A DNA stretch of 64,000 nt from Candidatus Harrisonbacteria bacterium (GTDB lineage: Bacteria; Patescibacteriota; Minisyncoccia; UBA6257; 02-FULL-45-10c): positions 311,647-375,646 of the forward strand of contig JACPTS010000001.1 in the NCBI GenBank assembly GCA_016192685.1, read 5' to 3'. Position numbers and translations under genes: made by a program. Positions 3,375 through 50,091 of this stretch are shown in pieces. Numbering within the stretch: position 1 is the first letter of the stretch; each line of letters starts with the position of its first letter. The notes under the pieces were generated by a model that worked only from the letters and a program-made list of their open reading frames with translations, was not told the DNA's origin and did not search any database.

Positions 3375-4286
3375 ATGGCATCAATCGAAAAATCTTTAAA
3401 AGACTACCTGGATTATCTGGAAATTGAGAAAAATCGTTCGCCGAAAACGCGGGAGAATTACGAACGATATTTAAAAGCATTTATAAATTTTTCTAAAATT
3501 AAAAAGCCGGAAAAAATTACGGCGGAAAATATAAAAAACTTCCGGGCGCATTTGGCAAGAAAAGAAAATCTTAAGAAGCTGACACAAACTTATTACGCCA
3601 TTGCCATAAGGAACTTTTTAAAATATCTGATTAAAAACGATTACGAAGTTTTATCGCCGGACAAAATTGAATTGCCCAAAATCGCCCGACGGCAGATTGA
3701 TATTATTGAATACGCGGATTTGGAAAGGTTTTTAGCGGCGCCGGCGCAAAACACTTTGCGCGGCCTGCGGGACCGGGCGATTTTGGAAATGCTTTTTTCC
3801 ACCGGCCTCCGTATTTCCGAACTTTGTAATTTAGACCGCTATCTTAATTTAAATCGCGGAGAAATCACGGTTCGCGGTAAGGGTGAAAAATTAAGAGTGG
3901 TATTTTTGTCTGACCGCGCCAAAGCCGCGATAAAAAATTGGCTGGACAAACGCACCGATACTTTGGAACATTTGTTTATCAGCTTTTCTAAACAGACTTC
4001 GCCGCTTGCCCAGCCGAAAGTAATCGGAAAAATCACGCCGCGGGCAGTCCAGCGCTTGGTGGAATTTTATCGCCGCAAAGCCGGCATCGCCAAAAATATT
4101 ACTCCCCACCAACTTCGCCACCAATTTGCCACTGATTTATTGGTGAACGGCGCGGATTTGCGTTCGGTGCAGGAACTGCTTGGCCACAGCAATATCTCTA
4201 CTACCCAAATTTATACTCATCTTACCAATAAAGAATTGCGGGAAGTCCATAAATCTTTTCATGCCGCCCGCCGGAAGCGATATTGA
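3375..4286 (+). CDS. tyrosine site-specific recombinase, XerC/XerD family
   Basis: 303 aa; N-terminal SAM-like core-binding domain; catalytic R...K...HxLRH...Y (HQLRHQFATDL, GHSNISTTQIYTHL). Confidence 0.85.
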   Translation: MASIEKSLKDYLDYLEIEKNRSPKTRENYERYLKAFINFSKIKKPEKITAENIKNFRAHLARKENLKKLTQTYYAIAIRNFLKYLIKNDYEVLSPDKIELPKIARRQIDIIEYADLERFLAAPAQNTLRGLRDRAILEMLFSTGLRISELCNLDRYLNLNRGEITVRGKGEKLRVVFLSDRAKAAIKNWLDKRTDTLEHLFISFSKQTSPLAQPKVIGKITPRAVQRLVEFYRRKAGIAKNITPHQLRHQFATDLLVNGADLRSVQELLGHSNISTTQIYTHLTNKELREVHKSFHAARRKRY

Positions 4287-8035: not shown

Positions 8036-8998
8036 ATGAAGATTAGAGTCGCGGTTTTAATGGGCGGGCCTTCGTCAGAACACGAGGTTTCTTTGAAAAC
8101 CGGGGAAATGATTTTAAAAAATTTGAATCCGGAAAAATTCGCGGCCTTTCCGGTAAAAATAGAGAAAAACGGCTCTTGGCCGATAACTTTAAAAGAATTA
8201 AAAGAGAAATGTGATATCGCTTTTATTGCCATGCACGGTGAATACGGCGAAGACGGCCAACTGCAAAGCATTTTGGAAGTTTTTAAAATTCCTTATACCG
8301 GTTCTGGGCCGATTGTGAGTGCTTTGGCGATAGACAAGCAAAAAACCGCTCAATTGCTTTCCCAAAACGGCTTGCTTGCCCCGGAGGCAATTTTGGTAAA
8401 AAGGAACGACTCCTATGCTGAATGGGCGATTCAGAAAAGCTTTTCTACCCCGTTAGTAATTAAGCCGGCTGACCGGGGATCAAGCGTTGGCGTAAGTTTA
8501 GTTTCCGTCCGGAATAAATTAAAAGAAGCCATTGCCCGGGCTGGTAATTATTCCGAATCCGTGATGGCCCAGCGTTATATTCAGGGGCGGGAAGTTACCT
8601 GCGGAGTTTTGGAAATCAACGGCACTGCTATCCCGCTGGTTCCCACCGAAATTATCCCGAAACAAGGAATAATTTTTGATTACCGTGCCAAATACGCGAT
8701 CGGCGGCTCTGACGAAATTACTCCGCCAAACCTTCCGAGAAAAACCGTTAAAAATATCCAGATGATTGCTTTGAAAGCGCATAAATTATTGGGATGTTCC
8801 GGAATGTCCAGAACTGATATGATATTAACTGACGCAGGAAATTTATATATTTTGGAATTAAACACTATTCCCGGAATGACGGAAACCAGCCTTTTGCCTC
8901 AGCAAGCGGCGGCGATGGGCATAAATTTTCCTCAGCTTTTAGAAATAATTATTCGTAGCAGCCTGCAAAAACACGAAAAGTATGGAAAAGGAAATTAA
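8036..8998 (+). CDS. ddl: D-alanine--D-alanine ligase
   Basis: 320 aa; ATP-grasp; N-terminal RVAVLMGGPSSEHEVSL typical of Ddl. Confidence 0.85.
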   Translation: MKIRVAVLMGGPSSEHEVSLKTGEMILKNLNPEKFAAFPVKIEKNGSWPITLKELKEKCDIAFIAMHGEYGEDGQLQSILEVFKIPYTGSGPIVSALAIDKQKTAQLLSQNGLLAPEAILVKRNDSYAEWAIQKSFSTPLVIKPADRGSSVGVSLVSVRNKLKEAIARAGNYSESVMAQRYIQGREVTCGVLEINGTAIPLVPTEIIPKQGIIFDYRAKYAIGGSDEITPPNLPRKTVKNIQMIALKAHKLLGCSGMSRTDMILTDAGNLYILELNTIPGMTETSLLPQQAAAMGINFPQLLEIIIRSSLQKHEKYGKGN

Positions 8999-9455
8999 AG
9001 AAATAATCTGGCAAGCGTCAGAATTTAAGTACCAGTATAAAGATGTTTCCTGGTACTGGCTGACGATTATCGCCGCCGGCATTTTATTTTTGGTTTCCCT
9101 CTGGCAGGGGAATTTTCTTTTCGCTTTATTTATCGTGATTGCCGAAGCCACTCTGCTTTTTTGGGCTAAGGAACTGCCGAAAGTTATTCATTTTAAACTG
9201 GACAAAAAAGGCATTCAACTGGGGAAAATAAAATCTTATCAATACGAAGATTTAAAAGGATTTCATATCCGGGAAAGGGAGGAGGGGGCTTCGGAATTAA
9301 TTTTAAAAACCAGGAATAAGCTGCATCCTTATCTTAAAATTTTAATCGTTAATAAAGATATTCCGGAAATTAAAGAATTTTTAAAAAAGCATTTGGAGGA
9401 AATAGAATACGAGGAATCTTTATCCGAAAGCTTAGCCGAAAAGATTGGATTTTAA
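8982..9455 (+). CDS. hypothetical membrane protein
   Basis: 157 aa, two predicted TM helices, no recognisable domain. Confidence 0.5.
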   Translation: MEKEIKEIIWQASEFKYQYKDVSWYWLTIIAAGILFLVSLWQGNFLFALFIVIAEATLLFWAKELPKVIHFKLDKKGIQLGKIKSYQYEDLKGFHIREREEGASELILKTRNKLHPYLKILIVNKDIPEIKEFLKKHLEEIEYEESLSESLAEKIGF

Positions 9456-10349: not shown

Positions 10350-10525
10350 GTGAAACATTTTGTGAAACATTGGTGTAAACTTTGTGCTTAAACAGCCCAG
10401 CACCCAGTTACATGAAACAATTTTATAGAGGGTAATATAAATTAAGCAAAGTGTTTCACGCTTATTTTGTGAAACATCCGGCATTTTTTAAGCTCAAAGT
10501 AGTTAGGGTACCGTTACGTGAAACA
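10350..10525. repeat. cluster of 7 GTGAAACA octamers (both orientations), iteron-like
   Basis: copies at 10350, 10362, 10373 (GTGTAAAC), 10412 (ATGAAACA), 10453 (rc), 10469, 10518; lies between HAD terminator and the 3' end of the LAGLIDADG gene. Confidence 0.6.
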
Positions 10526-10972
10526 CCTTTGTTGAAATTTTTTGGCTTTTTCTTCAAAATAGCCCCTTTTATATAAACCAAACAGAACTTTATAGTCAGG
10601 ATGAACATTTGGATCATTGCCGATTTTTTCTAACCAGGCAATAAATTGTTTTCCTTTAAACCCGATTAATTTTTTATTAAAAAATGGTATTATTATATCT
10701 CGTAATTCGCCAAAATCTCTCACCATTATTCTTACTGTTTTTCCTCTTTTAAAACCATCTAAAAGATATGGCTTGAAAGTATAAACTTTATTTTTAACGC
10801 CTAAATATTCCCTAACTTTCTCAACTAGTTCTCTGTCGCGTTCATGCATACCAAGAATAAATGCGGGTATTTTTATTTTATTGCCATATCTATTTCTTTG
10901 AGGTATATTACAAAAAGAAAAACAACCTTCGCCATCTATTAATCCTCTAATATAGTCGGCAGTTATATCCAT
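10514..10972 (-). CDS. LAGLIDADG homing endonuclease (single-motif, freestanding)
   Basis: 152 aa; IRGLIDGEGCF motif near N-terminus; not embedded in an rRNA/tRNA gene in this window. Confidence 0.7.
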   Translation of the reverse strand: MDITADYIRGLIDGEGCFSFCNIPQRNRYGNKIKIPAFILGMHERDRELVEKVREYLGVKNKVYTFKPYLLDGFKRGKTVRIMVRDFGELRDIIIPFFNKKLIGFKGKQFIAWLEKIGNDPNVHPDYKVLFGLYKRGYFEEKAKKFQQRCFT

Positions 10973-11043: not shown

Positions 11044-11424
11044 ATGACCAAAAAATCCGAAATAGGCAAATTAGGCGAAGATATTGCTTGCGAATATTTG
11101 TTAAACAAAAGTTTCACGATTATTGAACGTAATTTTAGGCAGCCGTGGGGAGAAATTGATATTATTACTAAAAATCCGGGCGGCGCCTTAGTTTTTGTAG
11201 AAGTAAAGACTATGCAGCAATACGGCAATAATGCGGCAATTGCCGCATTATTGCCGGAAGATAATTTAACCAAATCAAAATTAAAAAAACTGCAGAGAAT
11301 TTCCTATTTATACGCTAATCATAATTCTGAATTATTAGATGATAGGCAAGGATGGCAAATTGATTTAATAACTATCGTCCTTAATGAAGCCGGAACTGAT
11401 ATAAAACATTTTGAAAATATTTAA
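11044..11424 (+). CDS. YraN-family (UPF0102) endonuclease
   Basis: 126 aa; GKLGEDIACEYL...GEIDII...VFVEVKT restriction-endonuclease-like fold; contains a short insertion (QQYGNNAAIAALLPEDN). Confidence 0.7.
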   Translation: MTKKSEIGKLGEDIACEYLLNKSFTIIERNFRQPWGEIDIITKNPGGALVFVEVKTMQQYGNNAAIAALLPEDNLTKSKLKKLQRISYLYANHNSELLDDRQGWQIDLITIVLNEAGTDIKHFENI

Positions 11425-15110: not shown

Positions 15111-15262
15111 GATTCTCTACCTATATTTCTATCGGCACCGGCGTCGCTCCGCTCCAGCGGCGGAGCGCGCCTACGCCTCGCCGCGATTTTTGTTTCGCTT
15201 TGCGAAACAAACCAAGCAAATCGCGGCTCCGTAGTTGCCGTACGAAACATAGGCAGAGAATC
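15111..15262 (+). repeat. structured repeat element, copy A
   Basis: flanking inverted repeat gattctctacctat / ataggcagagaatc; core boxes TATCGGCACCGGCGTC - hairpin - GCGCCTACGCCTCGC - hairpin - GCTCCGTAGTTGCCGTACGA. Confidence 0.85.
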
Positions 15263-15332
15263 TATAATCAAGAAATATATCTGCTTATTTTGAAAAATCT
15301 AACCTCGCTTAGTTGGGATTTTTTAAATGGAC

Positions 15333-18786: not shown

Positions 18787-18790
18787 TTTA

Positions 18791-18934
18791 AAGCTCTATA
18801 TATCTTCCTACCGGCACCGGAGTCCGCTTGCTCCAGCGGCAAGCGGCTCCTACGCCTCGCTCCGAAATTTTTGCTTCGCGAAAACCAAGCATTTCGGAGC
18901 TCCGTAGTTGCCGTACGAAAGATATATAGAGCTT
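18791..18934 (+). repeat. structured repeat element, copy B
   Basis: perfect 16-bp flanking inverted repeat aagctctatatatctt / aagatatatagagctt; same three core boxes as copy A; nearly identical to copy G. Confidence 0.9.
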
Positions 18935-18945
18935 TTGAAAAATTT

Positions 18946-36606: not shown

Positions 36607-37008
36607 ATGGAGTGGGGGCAATTGGTGCTTGTAACTATTCGGGTGCTTTCGGGAATATCCTTAGTCTCTTTTTCTTTATTTATGATTTACGAAATGCTTC
36701 CAGATTGGGAACGTTGTCGCAATCTTTTGCCAGAAAAACCAGAATATTCAAAAGATATAAATTATATACGCCGTCTAAATGCAGAATTACTTTGGAAAAA
36801 TGAATGTTTGTCATCTTTGGGAAACTACTTATTTATATCATTACCTCTAACTTGTTTCGGACTAACATTAATAACTGAAAAAGATTTTTTATCAATAATT
36901 GGAGTTTTCTCTTTCCTTTTATTTTTGTCTTATCTTGCCATAAGCACAGTAATTTCTTGGATTCAGAAAACAATCAAAAAAGGAGGAGTGAAATGTACAT
37001 CTCAATAG
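36607..37008 (+). CDS. hypothetical polytopic membrane protein
   Basis: 133 aa, 3-4 TM helices, strong SD. Confidence 0.45.
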   Translation: MEWGQLVLVTIRVLSGISLVSFSLFMIYEMLPDWERCRNLLPEKPEYSKDINYIRRLNAELLWKNECLSSLGNYLFISLPLTCFGLTLITEKDFLSIIGVFSFLLFLSYLAISTVISWIQKTIKKGGVKCTSQ

Positions 37009-37202
37009 AGATGCTTGTGACGATGTGGTGCGGCCTTGGATTGATCGGCTTCATCAATGCGCTCCAGAAGCTTTACGGCGGAATCGCCGCAGGAATCTTG
37101 GCTATAAGATGGGAACTTGGCTATGATCTTAGCGTTTCGCTCATGGGAGGACCTTTCTCGCTTCTTTTTTCAATCAACCCTTGGCTTCCACTATCAAAGT
37201 AA
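36993..37202 (+). CDS. small hypothetical membrane protein (GC-rich)
   Basis: 69 aa from ATG 36993 preceded by SD aaaggaggagtg; two TM helices; followed by terminator agccccgc-gcttacatag-gcggggct + tttgtttttt at 37204-37245. Confidence 0.45.
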   Translation: MYISIEMLVTMWCGLGLIGFINALQKLYGGIAAGILAIRWELGYDLSVSLMGGPFSLLFSINPWLPLSK

Positions 37203-37263
37203 CCAACAGCCCCGCGCTTACATAGGCGGGGCTTTTGTTTTTTAAAAACCTCGCGTCAAACTG

Positions 37264-37295
37264 GTTAACAATATTACGATCGTAACATTGTTAAC
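37264..37295. repeat. 32-bp near-perfect palindrome GTTAACAATATTACGATCGTAACATTGTTAAC
   Basis: centre CGATCG, ends GTTAAC; second copy at 37915-37946. Confidence 0.8.
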
Positions 37296-37316
37296 TAAAA
37301 TAATTTATTCTTTTAT

Positions 37317-37889
37317 CTAATTTAATGACCCCTTTTTAATTACCCTAAAAATATGTATATAAGAAGTTAATTCGAGTTTTTCTATATCAAATAAAAAATC
37401 TTCTGGAATTTTATATTCTCCCGCCCACACACTTTTTTGCAGCATTTCAAATGCTAATAATTTTAATTGTTTTCTTAACCATATTCTTTTATATTTTAAT
37501 CTTTCCGGTATGTCAAAAATTATAAGATTTAAAGCACTATCTTTATGGGGTGCGTATAATCTTTTCGGAAAATAAGCAGTTTTGAATATTTTAATTTTTT
37601 CTAATTTTTGTATACCGTTTTTAGTAATTTGCCAATGCGATAACCCTTTTATTTTTTGTTTTTTTATAAAACCCTGTTTTTTAAGACGAGAAAGTAGGGC
37701 GAAAAAGCTTTTTTCTTGTAATCTTTCAATCTGTTTTTTATTTAGTTTTTCAGGATAAGTATAACCGTGCATTACTCGGCGCATTGCCTTGTAAGTTTTT
37801 TGATATCCAGGAATAATGTCGTCTATAAGTTCGGCGGTAACTAAAACTTTATGGCGCAATTTTTTTAATATAATTTCTGTTTGGGTCAT
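37317..37889 (-). CDS. hypothetical protein bracketed by two 32-bp palindromes
   Basis: 190 aa, Lys-rich, possible N-terminal winged-helix; no identifiable catalytic motif. Confidence 0.45.
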   Translation of the reverse strand: MTQTEIILKKLRHKVLVTAELIDDIIPGYQKTYKAMRRVMHGYTYPEKLNKKQIERLQEKSFFALLSRLKKQGFIKKQKIKGLSHWQITKNGIQKLEKIKIFKTAYFPKRLYAPHKDSALNLIIFDIPERLKYKRIWLRKQLKLLAFEMLQKSVWAGEYKIPEDFLFDIEKLELTSYIHIFRVIKKGSLN

Positions 37890-37914
37890 ACTTATATTTT
37901 ATTCATTAACGCTA

Positions 37915-37946
37915 GTTAACAACATTACGATCGTAATATTGTTAAC
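37915..37946. repeat. 32-bp palindrome copy 2 (GTTAACAACATTACGATCGTAATATTGTTAAC)
   Basis: located 26-57 nt upstream of the start of gene 37317..37889 (operator-like position). Confidence 0.8.
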
Positions 37947-37983
37947 TAATTAAAAATTAACGGAAAAACTAATTTCTTGATTT

Positions 37984-39861: not shown

Positions 39862-39890
39862 AAAGAAAAAGCCCCGTCAACTGGCCGCTT

Positions 39891-40037
39891 CGCTATACCT
39901 ATTTACCTACCGGCACCGGCGTCGGTCGCCTCCTGCGGGCGACCGCGCCTACGCCTCGCCGCCAAAAGTCCCGCATAGCGGGACACCAAGCTTTCGGCGG
40001 CTCCGTAGTTGCCGTACGATAAATAGGTATAGCTCGC
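39891..40037 (+). repeat. structured repeat element, copy C
   Basis: flanks cgctatacctatttac / gtaaataggtatagc; boxes TACCGGCACCGGCGTC, GCGCCTACGCCTCGCC, GCTCCGTAGTTGCCGTACGA; hairpin 2 = aaagtcccgcatagcgggacaccaag (shared with copy D). Confidence 0.9.
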
Positions 40038-40044
40038 TTACTGT

Positions 40045-42520: not shown

Positions 42521-42708
42521 GCCGCTCTGCCGAGTTGTCGTAGAGAAACTACGGAGCCCCAAAAAGATTGGTGTCCCGCCATGCGGGACTTTTTGGGGCG
42601 AGGCGTAGCGGGCTCGCGCCGCTGGAGCGCGAGAACCGCGGTTCTCATAGACAATTCGGCGGAGCGGCCGTCAAAAAATGCCGGTGCTGATAGACAAATA
42701 GACAGAGC
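42521..42708 (-). repeat. structured repeat element, copy D (inverted relative to C, with internal insertion)
   Basis: reverse complement contains TATCAGCACCGGC, CCGCTACGCCTCGCC, hairpin ccaaaaagtcccgcatggcgggacacc, GGCTCCGTAGTTTCTCTACGA, plus an extra segment ccgccgaattgtctatgag shared with copy E. Confidence 0.85.
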
Positions 42709-47395: not shown

Positions 47396-47576
47396 TCCGC
47401 CGAATTGTCTACGAATTTTACTCGCCCTGCCTGTATTTCTGACGGCACAGCCCCGCTTTGCGGGGCTACGCCTCAACGCCAAAAATTTAGGCTACCATTA
47501 TGCGATCGCATAATGGTAGCCTAAATGCCGAGCTTTTGGCGTTTCCGTAGTTGCCGCACAAAACACAGGCAGAGCT
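47396..47576 (+). repeat. structured repeat element, copy E (variant)
   Basis: flanks ctgcctgt / acaggcag; box1 variant GACGGCACAG; GCTACGCCTCA; 66-nt perfect palindromic hairpin centred on gcgatcgc; box3 variant TTCCGTAGTTGCCGCACA; upstream segment ttccgccgaattgtctacgaa shared with D. Confidence 0.85.
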
Positions 47577-47651
47577 CGTTAAATTATTTATGGAATTTCT
47601 CCACGATAGCTTAACAAATCGGCAATAAATAAAAAAACGAAATAGAACTTC

Positions 47652-47780: not shown

Positions 47781-48260
47781 ATGGGCATTTTGGTTCAAGG
47801 AATTCTCTGTTATGGATTCCGCATCAAGGACGAAGATGGTAACGAGGAAAACGTAACCATCAACTGGCTCCCCAAAGATCCAGACGGTGCTGAGGGGGAC
47901 TTCGAGGACTTTCTCGCTAAGCTGTTCGGCCTTAAAGAACCTGACAGTCAATACGACGAAAAGAGGTATGCCACAGACCCAGAGTATAAGAGGATGTGGA
48001 GCAGTTACTGGGAAAAGAAAAACAAGCTCGAAGAAGAGATTGGGGTAACCCTTGTTCATCACTGCTCTGGCGAACAGCGAATGTGTATCTTGGCTGTCAC
48101 GGAATCAGTGCGGGAAGCGAACTGGGGTGAGCCTGTCAATCTTGGTCAATCCATCACCGACAAGCAGACGGAGTGGCGAGAGAAACTTCGTGCCTTCTGC
48201 GAACGAGTGAATATCCAATTTGAAGAGCCTCAGCTTATCCTTTGCAGCTACTACGGATGA
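47781..48260 (+). CDS. hypothetical protein, compositionally foreign (GC-rich) cargo between repeat copies E and F
   Basis: 159 aa; codon usage (ctc, gac, aag, ggc) contrasts with the AT-rich host; no recognisable domain. Confidence 0.6.
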   Translation: MGILVQGILCYGFRIKDEDGNEENVTINWLPKDPDGAEGDFEDFLAKLFGLKEPDSQYDEKRYATDPEYKRMWSSYWEKKNKLEEEIGVTLVHHCSGEQRMCILAVTESVREANWGEPVNLGQSITDKQTEWREKLRAFCERVNIQFEEPQLILCSYYG

Positions 48261-48336: not shown

Positions 48337-48410
48337 ATTTCCCGCCAAAGCGAAAGCCAAGTCTGACTTGGCGAAAGCTGAGGCGGTTTTTATATTGAAT
48401 TAGATTAAGA

Positions 48411-48580
48411 GCTCCGCCTCTCTGTTGTGCGGCAACTACGGAGCCGCTAAAAGCTTGGCCTTCTACCTAACTATCTGACGATCGTCAGATAGTTAGGTAG
48501 AAGTTTTGGCAGCGAGGCGTAGGCGGCGCCGACCACAGGAGTCGGCGAACGCCGGTGCCGGTAAACAGAGAGGCGGAGCG
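48411..48580 (-). repeat. structured repeat element, copy F (inverted relative to E)
   Basis: perfect 16-bp flanks gctccgcctctctgtt / aacagagaggcggagc; reverse complement has TACCGGCACCGGCG, GCCTACGCCTCGC, 70-nt palindromic hairpin centred on gacgatcgtc, GCTCCGTAGTTGCCGCAC. Confidence 0.9.
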
Positions 48581-48600
48581 ATTTGTTGTATAATTAAAAT

Positions 48601-49911: not shown

Positions 49912-49925
49912 TTCGCGTTTCTTTC

Positions 49926-50065
49926 GCTTTGCTTATTTGCCTACCGGCACCGGCGTCGTTCCGCTCCTGCGGCGGAACGCGCCTACGCCTCGCTCCGAAA
50001 TTTTCGCTTCGCGAAAGCCAAGCATTTCGGAGCTCCGTAGTTGCCGTACGACAAACAAGCAAAGC
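49926..50065 (+). repeat. structured repeat element, copy G
   Basis: flanks gctttgcttatttg / caaacaagcaaagc; core nearly identical to copy B. Confidence 0.9.
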
Positions 50066-50091
50066 TTAATAATTTCATATATAATTAAATT

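Follow-up and report, generated by a model that had tools for sequence, protein, structure and literature searches.

Introduction

The regulator PaaX of Escherichia coli consists of a winged helix followed by a central Cas2-like domain (PaaX_M), which has been described as a dimerisation module, and a C-terminal domain that binds the ligand phenylacetyl-CoA. The operator covers ~39 bp with two-fold symmetry and has its outer hexamers far apart (TGATTC-N27-GAATCA); the promoter of PaaX itself is repressed as well (PMC9493321). Here, we describe a gene for a 190-aa PaaX-like protein (positions 37317 to 37889, minus strand), which lies between two near-identical long palindromes in a 64-kb window, i.e., the whole stretch of DNA that was analysed, from a metagenome-assembled genome of Candidatus Harrisonbacteria. 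An initial annotation of this window had offered two readings of the locus, an autoregulated DNA-binding protein with a duplicated dimeric operator or a small mobile module whose ends are palindromes, and both at once are supported by the comparisons presented below. We favor, with a probability of roughly 55%, a portable cassette which encodes a self-repressing PaaX-like protein and has its own long dyad operator on either side of the gene.

Small genes between palindromes are known from other systems as well. In the RAYT-REP (REPIN) arrangement, a small gene is flanked on both sides by repetitive extragenic palindromic (REP) repeats, which the gene product is thought to recognise. The invertible Hin/hix segment of Salmonella carries a gene for ~190 aa and is bounded by imperfect palindromes of 26–28 bp with a short conserved centre, and the Xer-dependent pdif modules of Acinetobacter plasmids occur as discrete modules in different contexts. 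Like the latter two, the locus described here is a unit of ~0.7–1 kb bounded by two imperfect palindromes.

On the protein level, Cas2 and VapD share a ferredoxin-like fold, and the regulators of the Lrp/AsnC type combine a winged helix-turn-helix (wHTH) at the N terminus with a C-terminal beta-alpha-beta-beta-alpha-beta oligomerisation domain and autoregulate through several sites. The searchable literature contained no description of the architecture reported here, and nothing that combines PaaX with Cas2 or with taxa of the candidate phyla radiation (CPR).

Two near-identical palindromes enclose the gene

The open reading frame (ORF) 37317–37889 is genuine. It begins with the ATG at 37889, the first start codon past the upstream stop codon, and can be aligned end to end with at least 90 homologues.

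Both palindromes were located around this gene, as the initial annotation had claimed. The downstream dyad site (37262 to 37297) reads TGGTTAAC-AATATT-ACGATCGT-AACATT-GTTAACTA and the upstream, promoter-side dyad site (37913 to 37948) reads TAGTTAAC-AACATT-ACGATCGT-AATATT-GTTAACTA, both without an assigned strand. Their 32-bp cores, GTTAACAATATTACGATCGTAACATTGTTAAC at 37264–37295 (copy 1) and GTTAACAACATTACGATCGTAATATTGTTAAC at 37915–37946 (copy 2), differ at 2 of 32 positions. The copies had been called perfect palindromes of 32 bp; they are near-identical, but each pairs at only 15 of 16 positions, with the mismatches A10/C23 in copy 1 and C9/A24 in copy 2, both of them C·A when read on the plus strand. 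Perfect symmetry therefore exists in the consensus only. Likewise, the 32 bp form the core of a longer unit, since the repeat extends over 38 nt as a direct repeat (37261–37298 and 37912–37949, 92% identity) and the upstream copy forms a palindrome of 36 bp (TAGTTAAC...GTTAACTA). The downstream palindrome lies 21 nt 3' of the stop codon, with the next gene being convergent, and the upstream palindrome lies 25 nt 5' of the ATG and 35 nt past the stop codon of ftsH; the gaps of 22 and 26 bp given earlier have to be corrected to these values.

When up to 3 mismatches were allowed, the 64-kb window contained exactly two matches to the palindrome, namely the two flanking copies, and 100 dinucleotide-preserving shuffles of the window contained none. 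The core hexamer CGATCG itself also occurs, as had been noticed before, at the centres of the long palindromes in copies E and F of a GC-rich structured repeat. These are perfect palindromes of 42 bp (47485–47526) and 44 bp (48460–48503), which represent the apical hairpins of the two repeat copies. In total, CGATCG occurs at 9 sites in the window, 4 of which lie in the middle of a long palindrome.

The gene product is a PaaX-like protein with a Cas2-like fold

Within the 190-aa protein, residues 121–183 match the Pfam family PF20803 (PaaX_M) with 44.4 bits (cut-off 24; 1.8e-11). PadR and Cas2 matches in the same scan stayed under threshold, with the Cas2 family PF09827 reaching 18.7 bits (cut-off 23.8). 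In the NCBIfam scan, the Cas2 model TIGR01573 gave 21.1 bits (cut-off 24.5) and the equivalog model of PaaX (TIGR02277) 23 bits versus a cut-off of 264.55, and the N-terminal Pfam model of PaaX found no match.

An AlphaFold2 model calculated with 31 homologues (predicted local distance difference test score, pLDDT, of 80.6) displays helices and a beta-hairpin wing in the N-terminal half, i.e., a wHTH domain (approximately residues 1–105, nt 37575–37889). The winged helix, which had been suspected at this position, is thus predicted by the model; in sequence, this half resembles the winged helices of PadR, MarR and AspA, with the matches to the PadR/MarR type being below the cut-offs. The C-terminal part is modelled as a ferredoxin-like beta-alpha-beta-beta-alpha-beta domain (approximately residues 115–185, nt 37335–37547), in agreement with the Pfam match. 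A Foldseek comparison with the PDB ranked E. coli PaaX (8A39) at the top, followed by many Cas2 structures and VapD, and weak Lrp/AsnC matches appeared at ranks 33–50. Although the Lrp/AsnC regulators have the same domain order, there is no sequence-family match to them and their sites are of another type.

The profile of the C-terminal domain aligns the Asp of the motif FDIPE with the Asp of the FD/YD motif in strand beta1 of Cas2, which we take to be the catalytic residue of the latter. Both the Asp and the Glu of FDIPE are invariant in the family; in addition to the Asp of FD(I/L)P, a QKSVW motif aligns with Cas2. The protein ends ~7 residues past the last strand of the Cas2-like domain and the C-terminal domain of PaaX is absent, which is reflected in the length of 190 aa as compared to 305 residues for E. 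coli PaaX (chain in 8A39). Judged from profile and model, the protein is a truncated PaaX-like protein, consisting of a PadR/MarR-type winged helix and a Cas2 fold without the effector domain.

Filing the protein as PaaX proper would be unwarranted, since the effector domain is lacking, the score is far under the equivalog cut-off and no paa genes are found near the gene. Its neighbours are ftsH, small unannotated ORFs and a tRNA-Ile gene, and recurrent paa genes are absent among the neighbours of the 68 family loci described below. Filing it as Cas2 would be unwarranted as well, because the scores are under the cut-offs and the 64-kb window contains no CRISPR array; furthermore, in contrast to Cas2, the protein is fused to a winged helix. 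The gene cas1 is absent from the precomputed annotations of called genes at the loci L001–L004 and L100–L105 (the ORFs of the window were not searched for cas1). Scans with Pfam, NCBIfam, PHROGs and PADLOC revealed no transposase family and matched PaaX_M, Cas2 and wHTH families only. Here, the Pfam and NCBIfam scans also gave no match to the HUH/Tyr transposases, the alignment not having been inspected specifically for an HUH/Tyr motif.

The fold also raises the question of a single-gene addiction or toxin-like module, in which a nuclease of the Cas2/VapD fold would be kept very low by its fused autorepressor and the two operators. The conserved Asp fits such a nuclease, and a small, solitary cassette with a patchy distribution is what such a module would look like; moreover, a Phd/YefM-ParE pair is found at the equivalent spot past ftsH in the relative L100. 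However, the fold alone is no demonstration of catalysis and a toxicity would likewise be putative. Other than in type II toxin-antitoxin systems, which are two-gene operons, a single ORF lies between the palindromes, and there is neither an antitoxin partner nor room for one in spacers of 25 and 21 nt. PADLOC yielded weak Cas2 matches (E ~7e-5) and one weak CARF match only. Taken as a whole, we regard a toxin-like module as quite improbable.

Gene and palindromes are linked throughout the family

The family is large and comprises 6,046 clusters at 50% identity for E <= 1e-3, 3,814 for E <= 1e-10 and 885 for E <= 1e-30. All homologues with a source name originate from CPR/Patescibacteria; one related locus (L006) stems from a bin labelled Gammaproteobacteria. 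Two orthologues with 58% identity, L008 and L014, are located in different neighbourhoods and display the same two-palindrome bracketing at the same distances, with diverged letters. Here, the palindromes are GTTAACACTACTACGACCGTAGTATTGTTAAC and GTTAACAACACTGCGGTCGTAGCATTGTTAAC in L008, and GTGCAACAACTTGACGAACGTCAGATTGTTGCAC plus a near copy of it in L014.

When 185,579 genomes, one per species, were scanned blindly for the pattern TTAAC-N5-TACGATCGTA-N5-GTTAA, three loci were returned, and two of these adjoin PaaX-like ORFs with three or four such palindromes. Furthermore, 80 family loci were collected from metagenomes; 68 loci, including the window, L008 and L014, were non-redundant and the site counts refer to 64. 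Applying a strict definition of a site (palindrome arms of at least 12 bp), sites were present on both sides of the gene at 34 of the 64 loci and on one side at another 20, whereas none of 78 control ORFs from these loci was bracketed. In these 254 kb of loci, 92 of 94 CGATCG-type palindromes lie within 200 nt of a family gene. With a relaxed definition (core hexamer and symmetry at 11 or more of 16 flanking positions), a site was found upstream at 55, downstream at 56 and on both sides at 50 of the 64 loci. The background of this definition is one site in 176 kb of flanks more than 300 nt away from the gene and one in 40 kb of coding sequence. Copies within one locus are 85% identical (median), whereas copies of different loci share 45%.

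These numbers bear directly on whether the palindrome is a generic REP-like dispersed element, which flanks the gene by accident. Many copies unrelated to the gene had been named in the initial annotation as the sign of such an element, and the two further CGATCG-centred palindromes in the window would point in this direction. Nevertheless, such copies were seen neither in the 64-kb window, where this palindrome sequence occurs only twice, nor at the family loci, where the palindromes adjoin the family gene and the arms are locus-specific and inherited with it. The gene-linked sites and the low background across the family loci rule out a generic repeat of this kind, and its probability is practically negligible. 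This is also the difference to the RAYT-REP systems, whose palindromes are dispersed and whose protein is an IS200-like HUH/Tyr transposase. On the basis of the sequence comparisons and by analogy with PaaX, the palindrome is very probably the own 38-bp binding site of the gene product.

No universal neighbour, i.e., no conserved partner gene, was found at the family loci. A trxB gene upstream and a gene for a 205-aa membrane protein downstream occur at 12 loci each, which is a clade-level feature. Rfam contains no family for the palindromes.

Architecture of the site and overlap with the putative promoter

Of 92 sites, 61 have CGATCG as their central hexamer. Nearly all other centres are CGGCCG, TGATCA, CAATTG or single-transition variants, which means that the centre stays self-complementary. 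High information content is restricted to ACGATCGT and an outer A(G/C)TAAA block 15–20 nt from the centre. Sites that fail the strict test keep TTA(G/C)T-N11-12-CGATCG-N11-12-A(G/C)TAA with an asymmetric spacer and span 38–40 bp. Since the ends and the middle are retained in these sites, the conserved parts are the two outer half-sites and the centre. The spacers are hypervariable, yet mostly symmetric. Asymmetric centres allow the relative orientation of the two copies to be read, which is inverted in L008, L021 and L022 and direct in L014 and L087.

The geometry of the cassette site resembles that of the operator of E. coli PaaX. In contrast to PaaX, the cassette has a conserved CGATCG centre, a second site past the stop codon and portability.

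The upstream copy had been placed in operator position, and the sequence anatomy is in line with this. A putative promoter can be read at 37896 to 37922 on the minus strand. Its -10-like element TAAAAT (37896–37901) ends 7 nt 5' of the ATG, and the mRNA would accordingly be leaderless. Two -35-like hexamers, TTGTTA (37917–37922) and TTAACT (37914–37919), are situated inside the gene-proximal arm of the upstream palindrome. The same layout is present in L008 (TTGTTA-17-TATAAT), and in the syntenic loci of the trxB clade the gene-proximal arm ends with GTTGACT, giving TTGACT-17-TAAGAT. Because one copy of the site overlaps the -35 region of the gene itself, autorepression would be the expected outcome of binding.

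Palindromes of this kind could also act as RNA or single-stranded DNA hairpins, for example as terminators, mRNA-stabilising stem-loops or cruciforms, instead of duplex sites for a protein. The arms change symmetrically and with compensation, and a similar palindrome takes the place of the apical hairpin in the repeat copies E and F, both of which would fit to a hairpin. The same holds for the mismatches on the sense strand, where G·T exceeds A·C (48 versus 28, p = 0.03), although this bias is weak and a mutational explanation is possible. On the contrary, a self-complementary centre (GATC, GGCC, AATT, TGATCA) is not needed in a hairpin loop, and many sites with asymmetric spacers still contain the outer half-sites and the centre. 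Furthermore, the upstream site covers the -35 region and would precede the start of transcription, so that a hairpin in the 5' untranslated region is disfavoured. No U-tract follows 3' of the palindromes, while canonical terminators are used in this genome. Hairpins as the actual function are therefore considered very unlikely, even more so than a toxin-like module, and duplex binding sites for the PaaX-like protein are preferred.

The downstream site is kept at 26 of 33 loci with a co-directional next gene and at 12 of 19 loci with a convergent one, the window belonging to the latter. As it is kept whatever the direction of the next gene, the downstream copy is not simply the operator of the neighbour, and this candidate function was rejected in general.

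A replication terminus, with a Tus/RTP-like protein bound to Ter sites, was considered and rejected as well. The cumulative GC skew has a local maximum near 36 kb of the window; here, the skew follows the gene strand across the window. The 25 family loci analysed for it display no left/right switch of the skew (12/25), and both flanks are positive in 18.

Gene and palindromes form a discrete accessory cassette

The DNA homology between the window and L008 covers exactly 37264–37948. The pair L021 and L022 shares 83% nucleotide identity over exactly 723 bp, from palindrome to palindrome, while several kb of the flanks lack any similarity even by tblastx. In other cassette pairs, the homology breaks 0–4 nt from an outer palindrome edge, and L032 is an apparent recombinant, which is joined at the upstream palindrome. 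The cassettes have a length of 682–847 bp with a median of 727 bp.

The interval from tRNA-Ile to ftsH was compared with the closest relatives that have enough sequence past ftsH, as had been proposed in the initial annotation. In all five, L100 (FtsH identity 93%), L101 (83%), L104 (83%), L102 (82%) and L105 (81%), the family gene and its sites are missing downstream of ftsH. The window is homologous to L100, L101 and L102 up to the ftsH stop codon (37984) and again from a terminator (37248–37206) in L100 and L102 and from tRNA-Ile in all three. Thus, the cassette corresponds to an indel at 37249 to 37983. In these three relatives, the spot past ftsH is occupied by one copy of the GC-rich structured repeat, which follows straight after the ftsH stop codon.

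Two observations on this spot can be added. In L103 (FtsH 87% identical), an E-type GC-rich repeat with the CGATCG palindrome TCTACTAACAAACGATCGTTTCATAGTA (3780–3823) is present ~130 nt past the ftsH stop codon, and the contig ends inside this palindrome. L100 contains, at 8168–9360, a Phd/YefM-like antitoxin gene (sub-threshold), a gene for a ParE-family toxin (26 bits, cut-off 23) and a 190-aa ORF that matches SprT-like proteins and metallopeptidase toxins weakly and below the cut-offs. With these contents in L100, the spot downstream of ftsH appears to gather accessory modules.

As is known for transposons, repeats are located at the exact ends of the homology blocks and presence/absence is polymorphic. 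The cassette is best read as accessory DNA, whose gain, loss and relocation involve the whole unit and take place on an evolutionary timescale. The small mobile module of the earlier proposal is supported to this extent, and how it would move is left to the readings discussed in the following.

One such reading is an autonomous selfish mobile element of a new kind, in which the protein with its wHTH and Cas2 fold cuts or exchanges strands at CGATCG and autorepression is secondary. Several independent pairs with homology ending within ~4 nt of the outer palindrome edges, the syntenic site empty of the cassette in the closest relatives, the toxin-antitoxin pair at this hot spot in L100 and the apparent recombinant L032 speak for it. 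A fixed centre with free arms is also typical for recombination sites, and the invariant Asp and Glu of FDIPE, the former aligned with the Asp of Cas2, could be read as parts of an active site. The GC content of the gene is lower than that of the flanks in the window (28% as compared to ~45–50%) and at 45 of 50 loci, but this may be explained by the Lys-rich composition of the protein.

A number of findings oppose this. No target-site duplication was detected, the number of shared flanking k-mers being that of the shuffled control. No locus has more than one cassette and the 64-kb window has just the one, every exact protein variant is seen in one genomic context only, and the synteny trxB – cassette – 205-aa gene is stable in one clade. 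The 2.9 million viral contigs of IMG/VR contain no relatives. Known transposase or recombinase motifs are lacking, and the Cas2-like domain of PaaX serves as a dimerisation module (PMC9493321). Compared to Hin/hix and pdif, neither a serine nor a tyrosine recombinase is encoded, inverted or excised forms were not seen, and the orientation of the two palindromes is inconsistent. Overall, an autonomous element of this kind appears unlikely, albeit, as the main rival reading, worth serious attention. Put more narrowly, the claim that the protein is a Cas2-related transposase or recombinase of an undescribed autonomous mobile element, cutting or joining at the CGATCG of the terminal palindromes, is clearly doubtful and commands less belief than the broader reading, although slightly more than the toxin-like module.

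An origin from phages was tried as a further candidate and rejected. Besides the lack of relatives in IMG/VR, nothing specific was obtained from PHROGs or PADLOC.

Other features of the window

The GC-rich structured repeat occurs in seven copies of ~150–190 nt in the window (15111–15269, 18790–18942, 39889–40043, 42524–42700, 47400–47590, 48398–48581 and 49923–50075). Its parts are an outer stem, an internal hairpin whose loop CTCC(A/T)GCGG is conserved, the conserved blocks TACGCCTCGC and CTCCGTAGTTGCCG, and an apical hairpin that varies in a compensatory manner. Rfam has no family for this repeat. The palindromes of the copies E and F bracket a 159-aa ORF (47781–48260) without a Pfam match. 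Their arms differ from those of the cassette sites; copy F shares TAAC-N6-ACGATCGT-N6-GTTA with them. They could be extra binding sites or relics.

Another palindrome of 38 bp, TACGGCAATAATGCGGCAATTGCCGCATTATTGCCGGA, with a CAATTG centre is located at 11221–11258 within the coding sequence of a 126-aa ORF (11044–11424) and is identical in L100 (12173–12210). This ORF looks like a member of the UPF0102/YraN type, and its counterparts in L100 and L105 carry PF02021. A 152-aa ORF on the minus strand (10514–10972) contains a DGEGCF motif and resembles LAGLIDADG homing endonucleases, as judged by eye only.

Convergent with the cassette, two overlapping ORFs on the plus strand, 36607–37008 (133 aa) and 36957–37202 (81 aa), have no Pfam match and end at a canonical terminator (37208–37240). 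A frameshift may have split a single gene here. Only the 133-aa product is found among the Logan gene calls, and in L102 this position is taken by one gene of 142 aa.

Discussion

Mechanistically, we favor a portable PaaX-like repressor that controls itself. By analogy with PaaX and Cas2, the Cas2-fold domain would mediate dimerisation of the protein, and the target of the dimer would be a site of ~38 bp with two-fold symmetry, in which the TTA(G/C)T half-sites are located 16–17 bp on either side of ACGATCGT. Occupation of the upstream site over the -35 region would shut off the synthesis of the protein, whereas the second site, 21 bp past the stop codon, would result in a gene enclosed by two bound dimers. 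The most likely purpose of this arrangement would be to clamp or loop the gene, or to act as a roadblock for transcription entering from either side. Expression would thereby be self-limited wherever the cassette lands, which would suit arbitrary contexts, and the cassette would relocate as a unit with its ends at the outer palindrome edges. The autoregulated dimeric DNA-binding protein that had been suggested initially is consistent with the winged helix, with the PaaX-type Cas2 fold, with sites that travel with the gene and with the overlap of the upstream copy and the -35 region.

Several observations weigh against this mechanism. Most positions of the arms vary, in contrast to the conserved putative recognition helix FYSLLSRLKKQGF. 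CGATCG palindromes exist outside of the cassette as well, in the repeat copies E and F. The model does not account for the need for the downstream site, which persists beside a convergent next gene. A strict scan for the sigma-70 consensus called no promoter for the gene on this strand of the window; for this reason the promoter given above is inferred from sequence anatomy. The centres of the two sites, which are 626–809 bp apart, show no helical phasing (Rayleigh p = 0.6 at 10.5 bp), a test that is uninformative for a loop of ~650 bp. Finally, among 106 differing positions between paired copies, 45 are compensatory doubles. The symmetry of the spacers goes beyond the needs of a protein site and may point to a hairpin or cruciform, or alternatively to a mutational process which creates symmetry. 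Here, the template-switch "correction" of quasi-palindromes represents a possible source of such symmetry.

What is new is a cassette of ~0.7 kb with one gene between two palindromes, which has its own palindrome letters at each locus and recurs across CPR/Patescibacteria. These bacteria have tiny genomes and few known regulators, and here a large family of minimal PaaX/Cas2-like proteins with a predicted DNA-binding function is present. If the cassette is purely regulatory, it would represent an unusual design, i.e., a portable gene that carries both operators around itself. The many cassettes with differing sites could also supply repressor/operator pairs that do not cross-react. If the palindromes serve as recombination ends as well, the cassette would be a new minimal mobile element based on a Cas2 fold. 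Should the protein indeed be a Cas2-related transposase or recombinase, DNA units with palindromic repeats of 30–40 bp at their ends would be linked to a free-living Cas2 relative, and this would bear on the origin of the CRISPR adaptation module and of its repeats.

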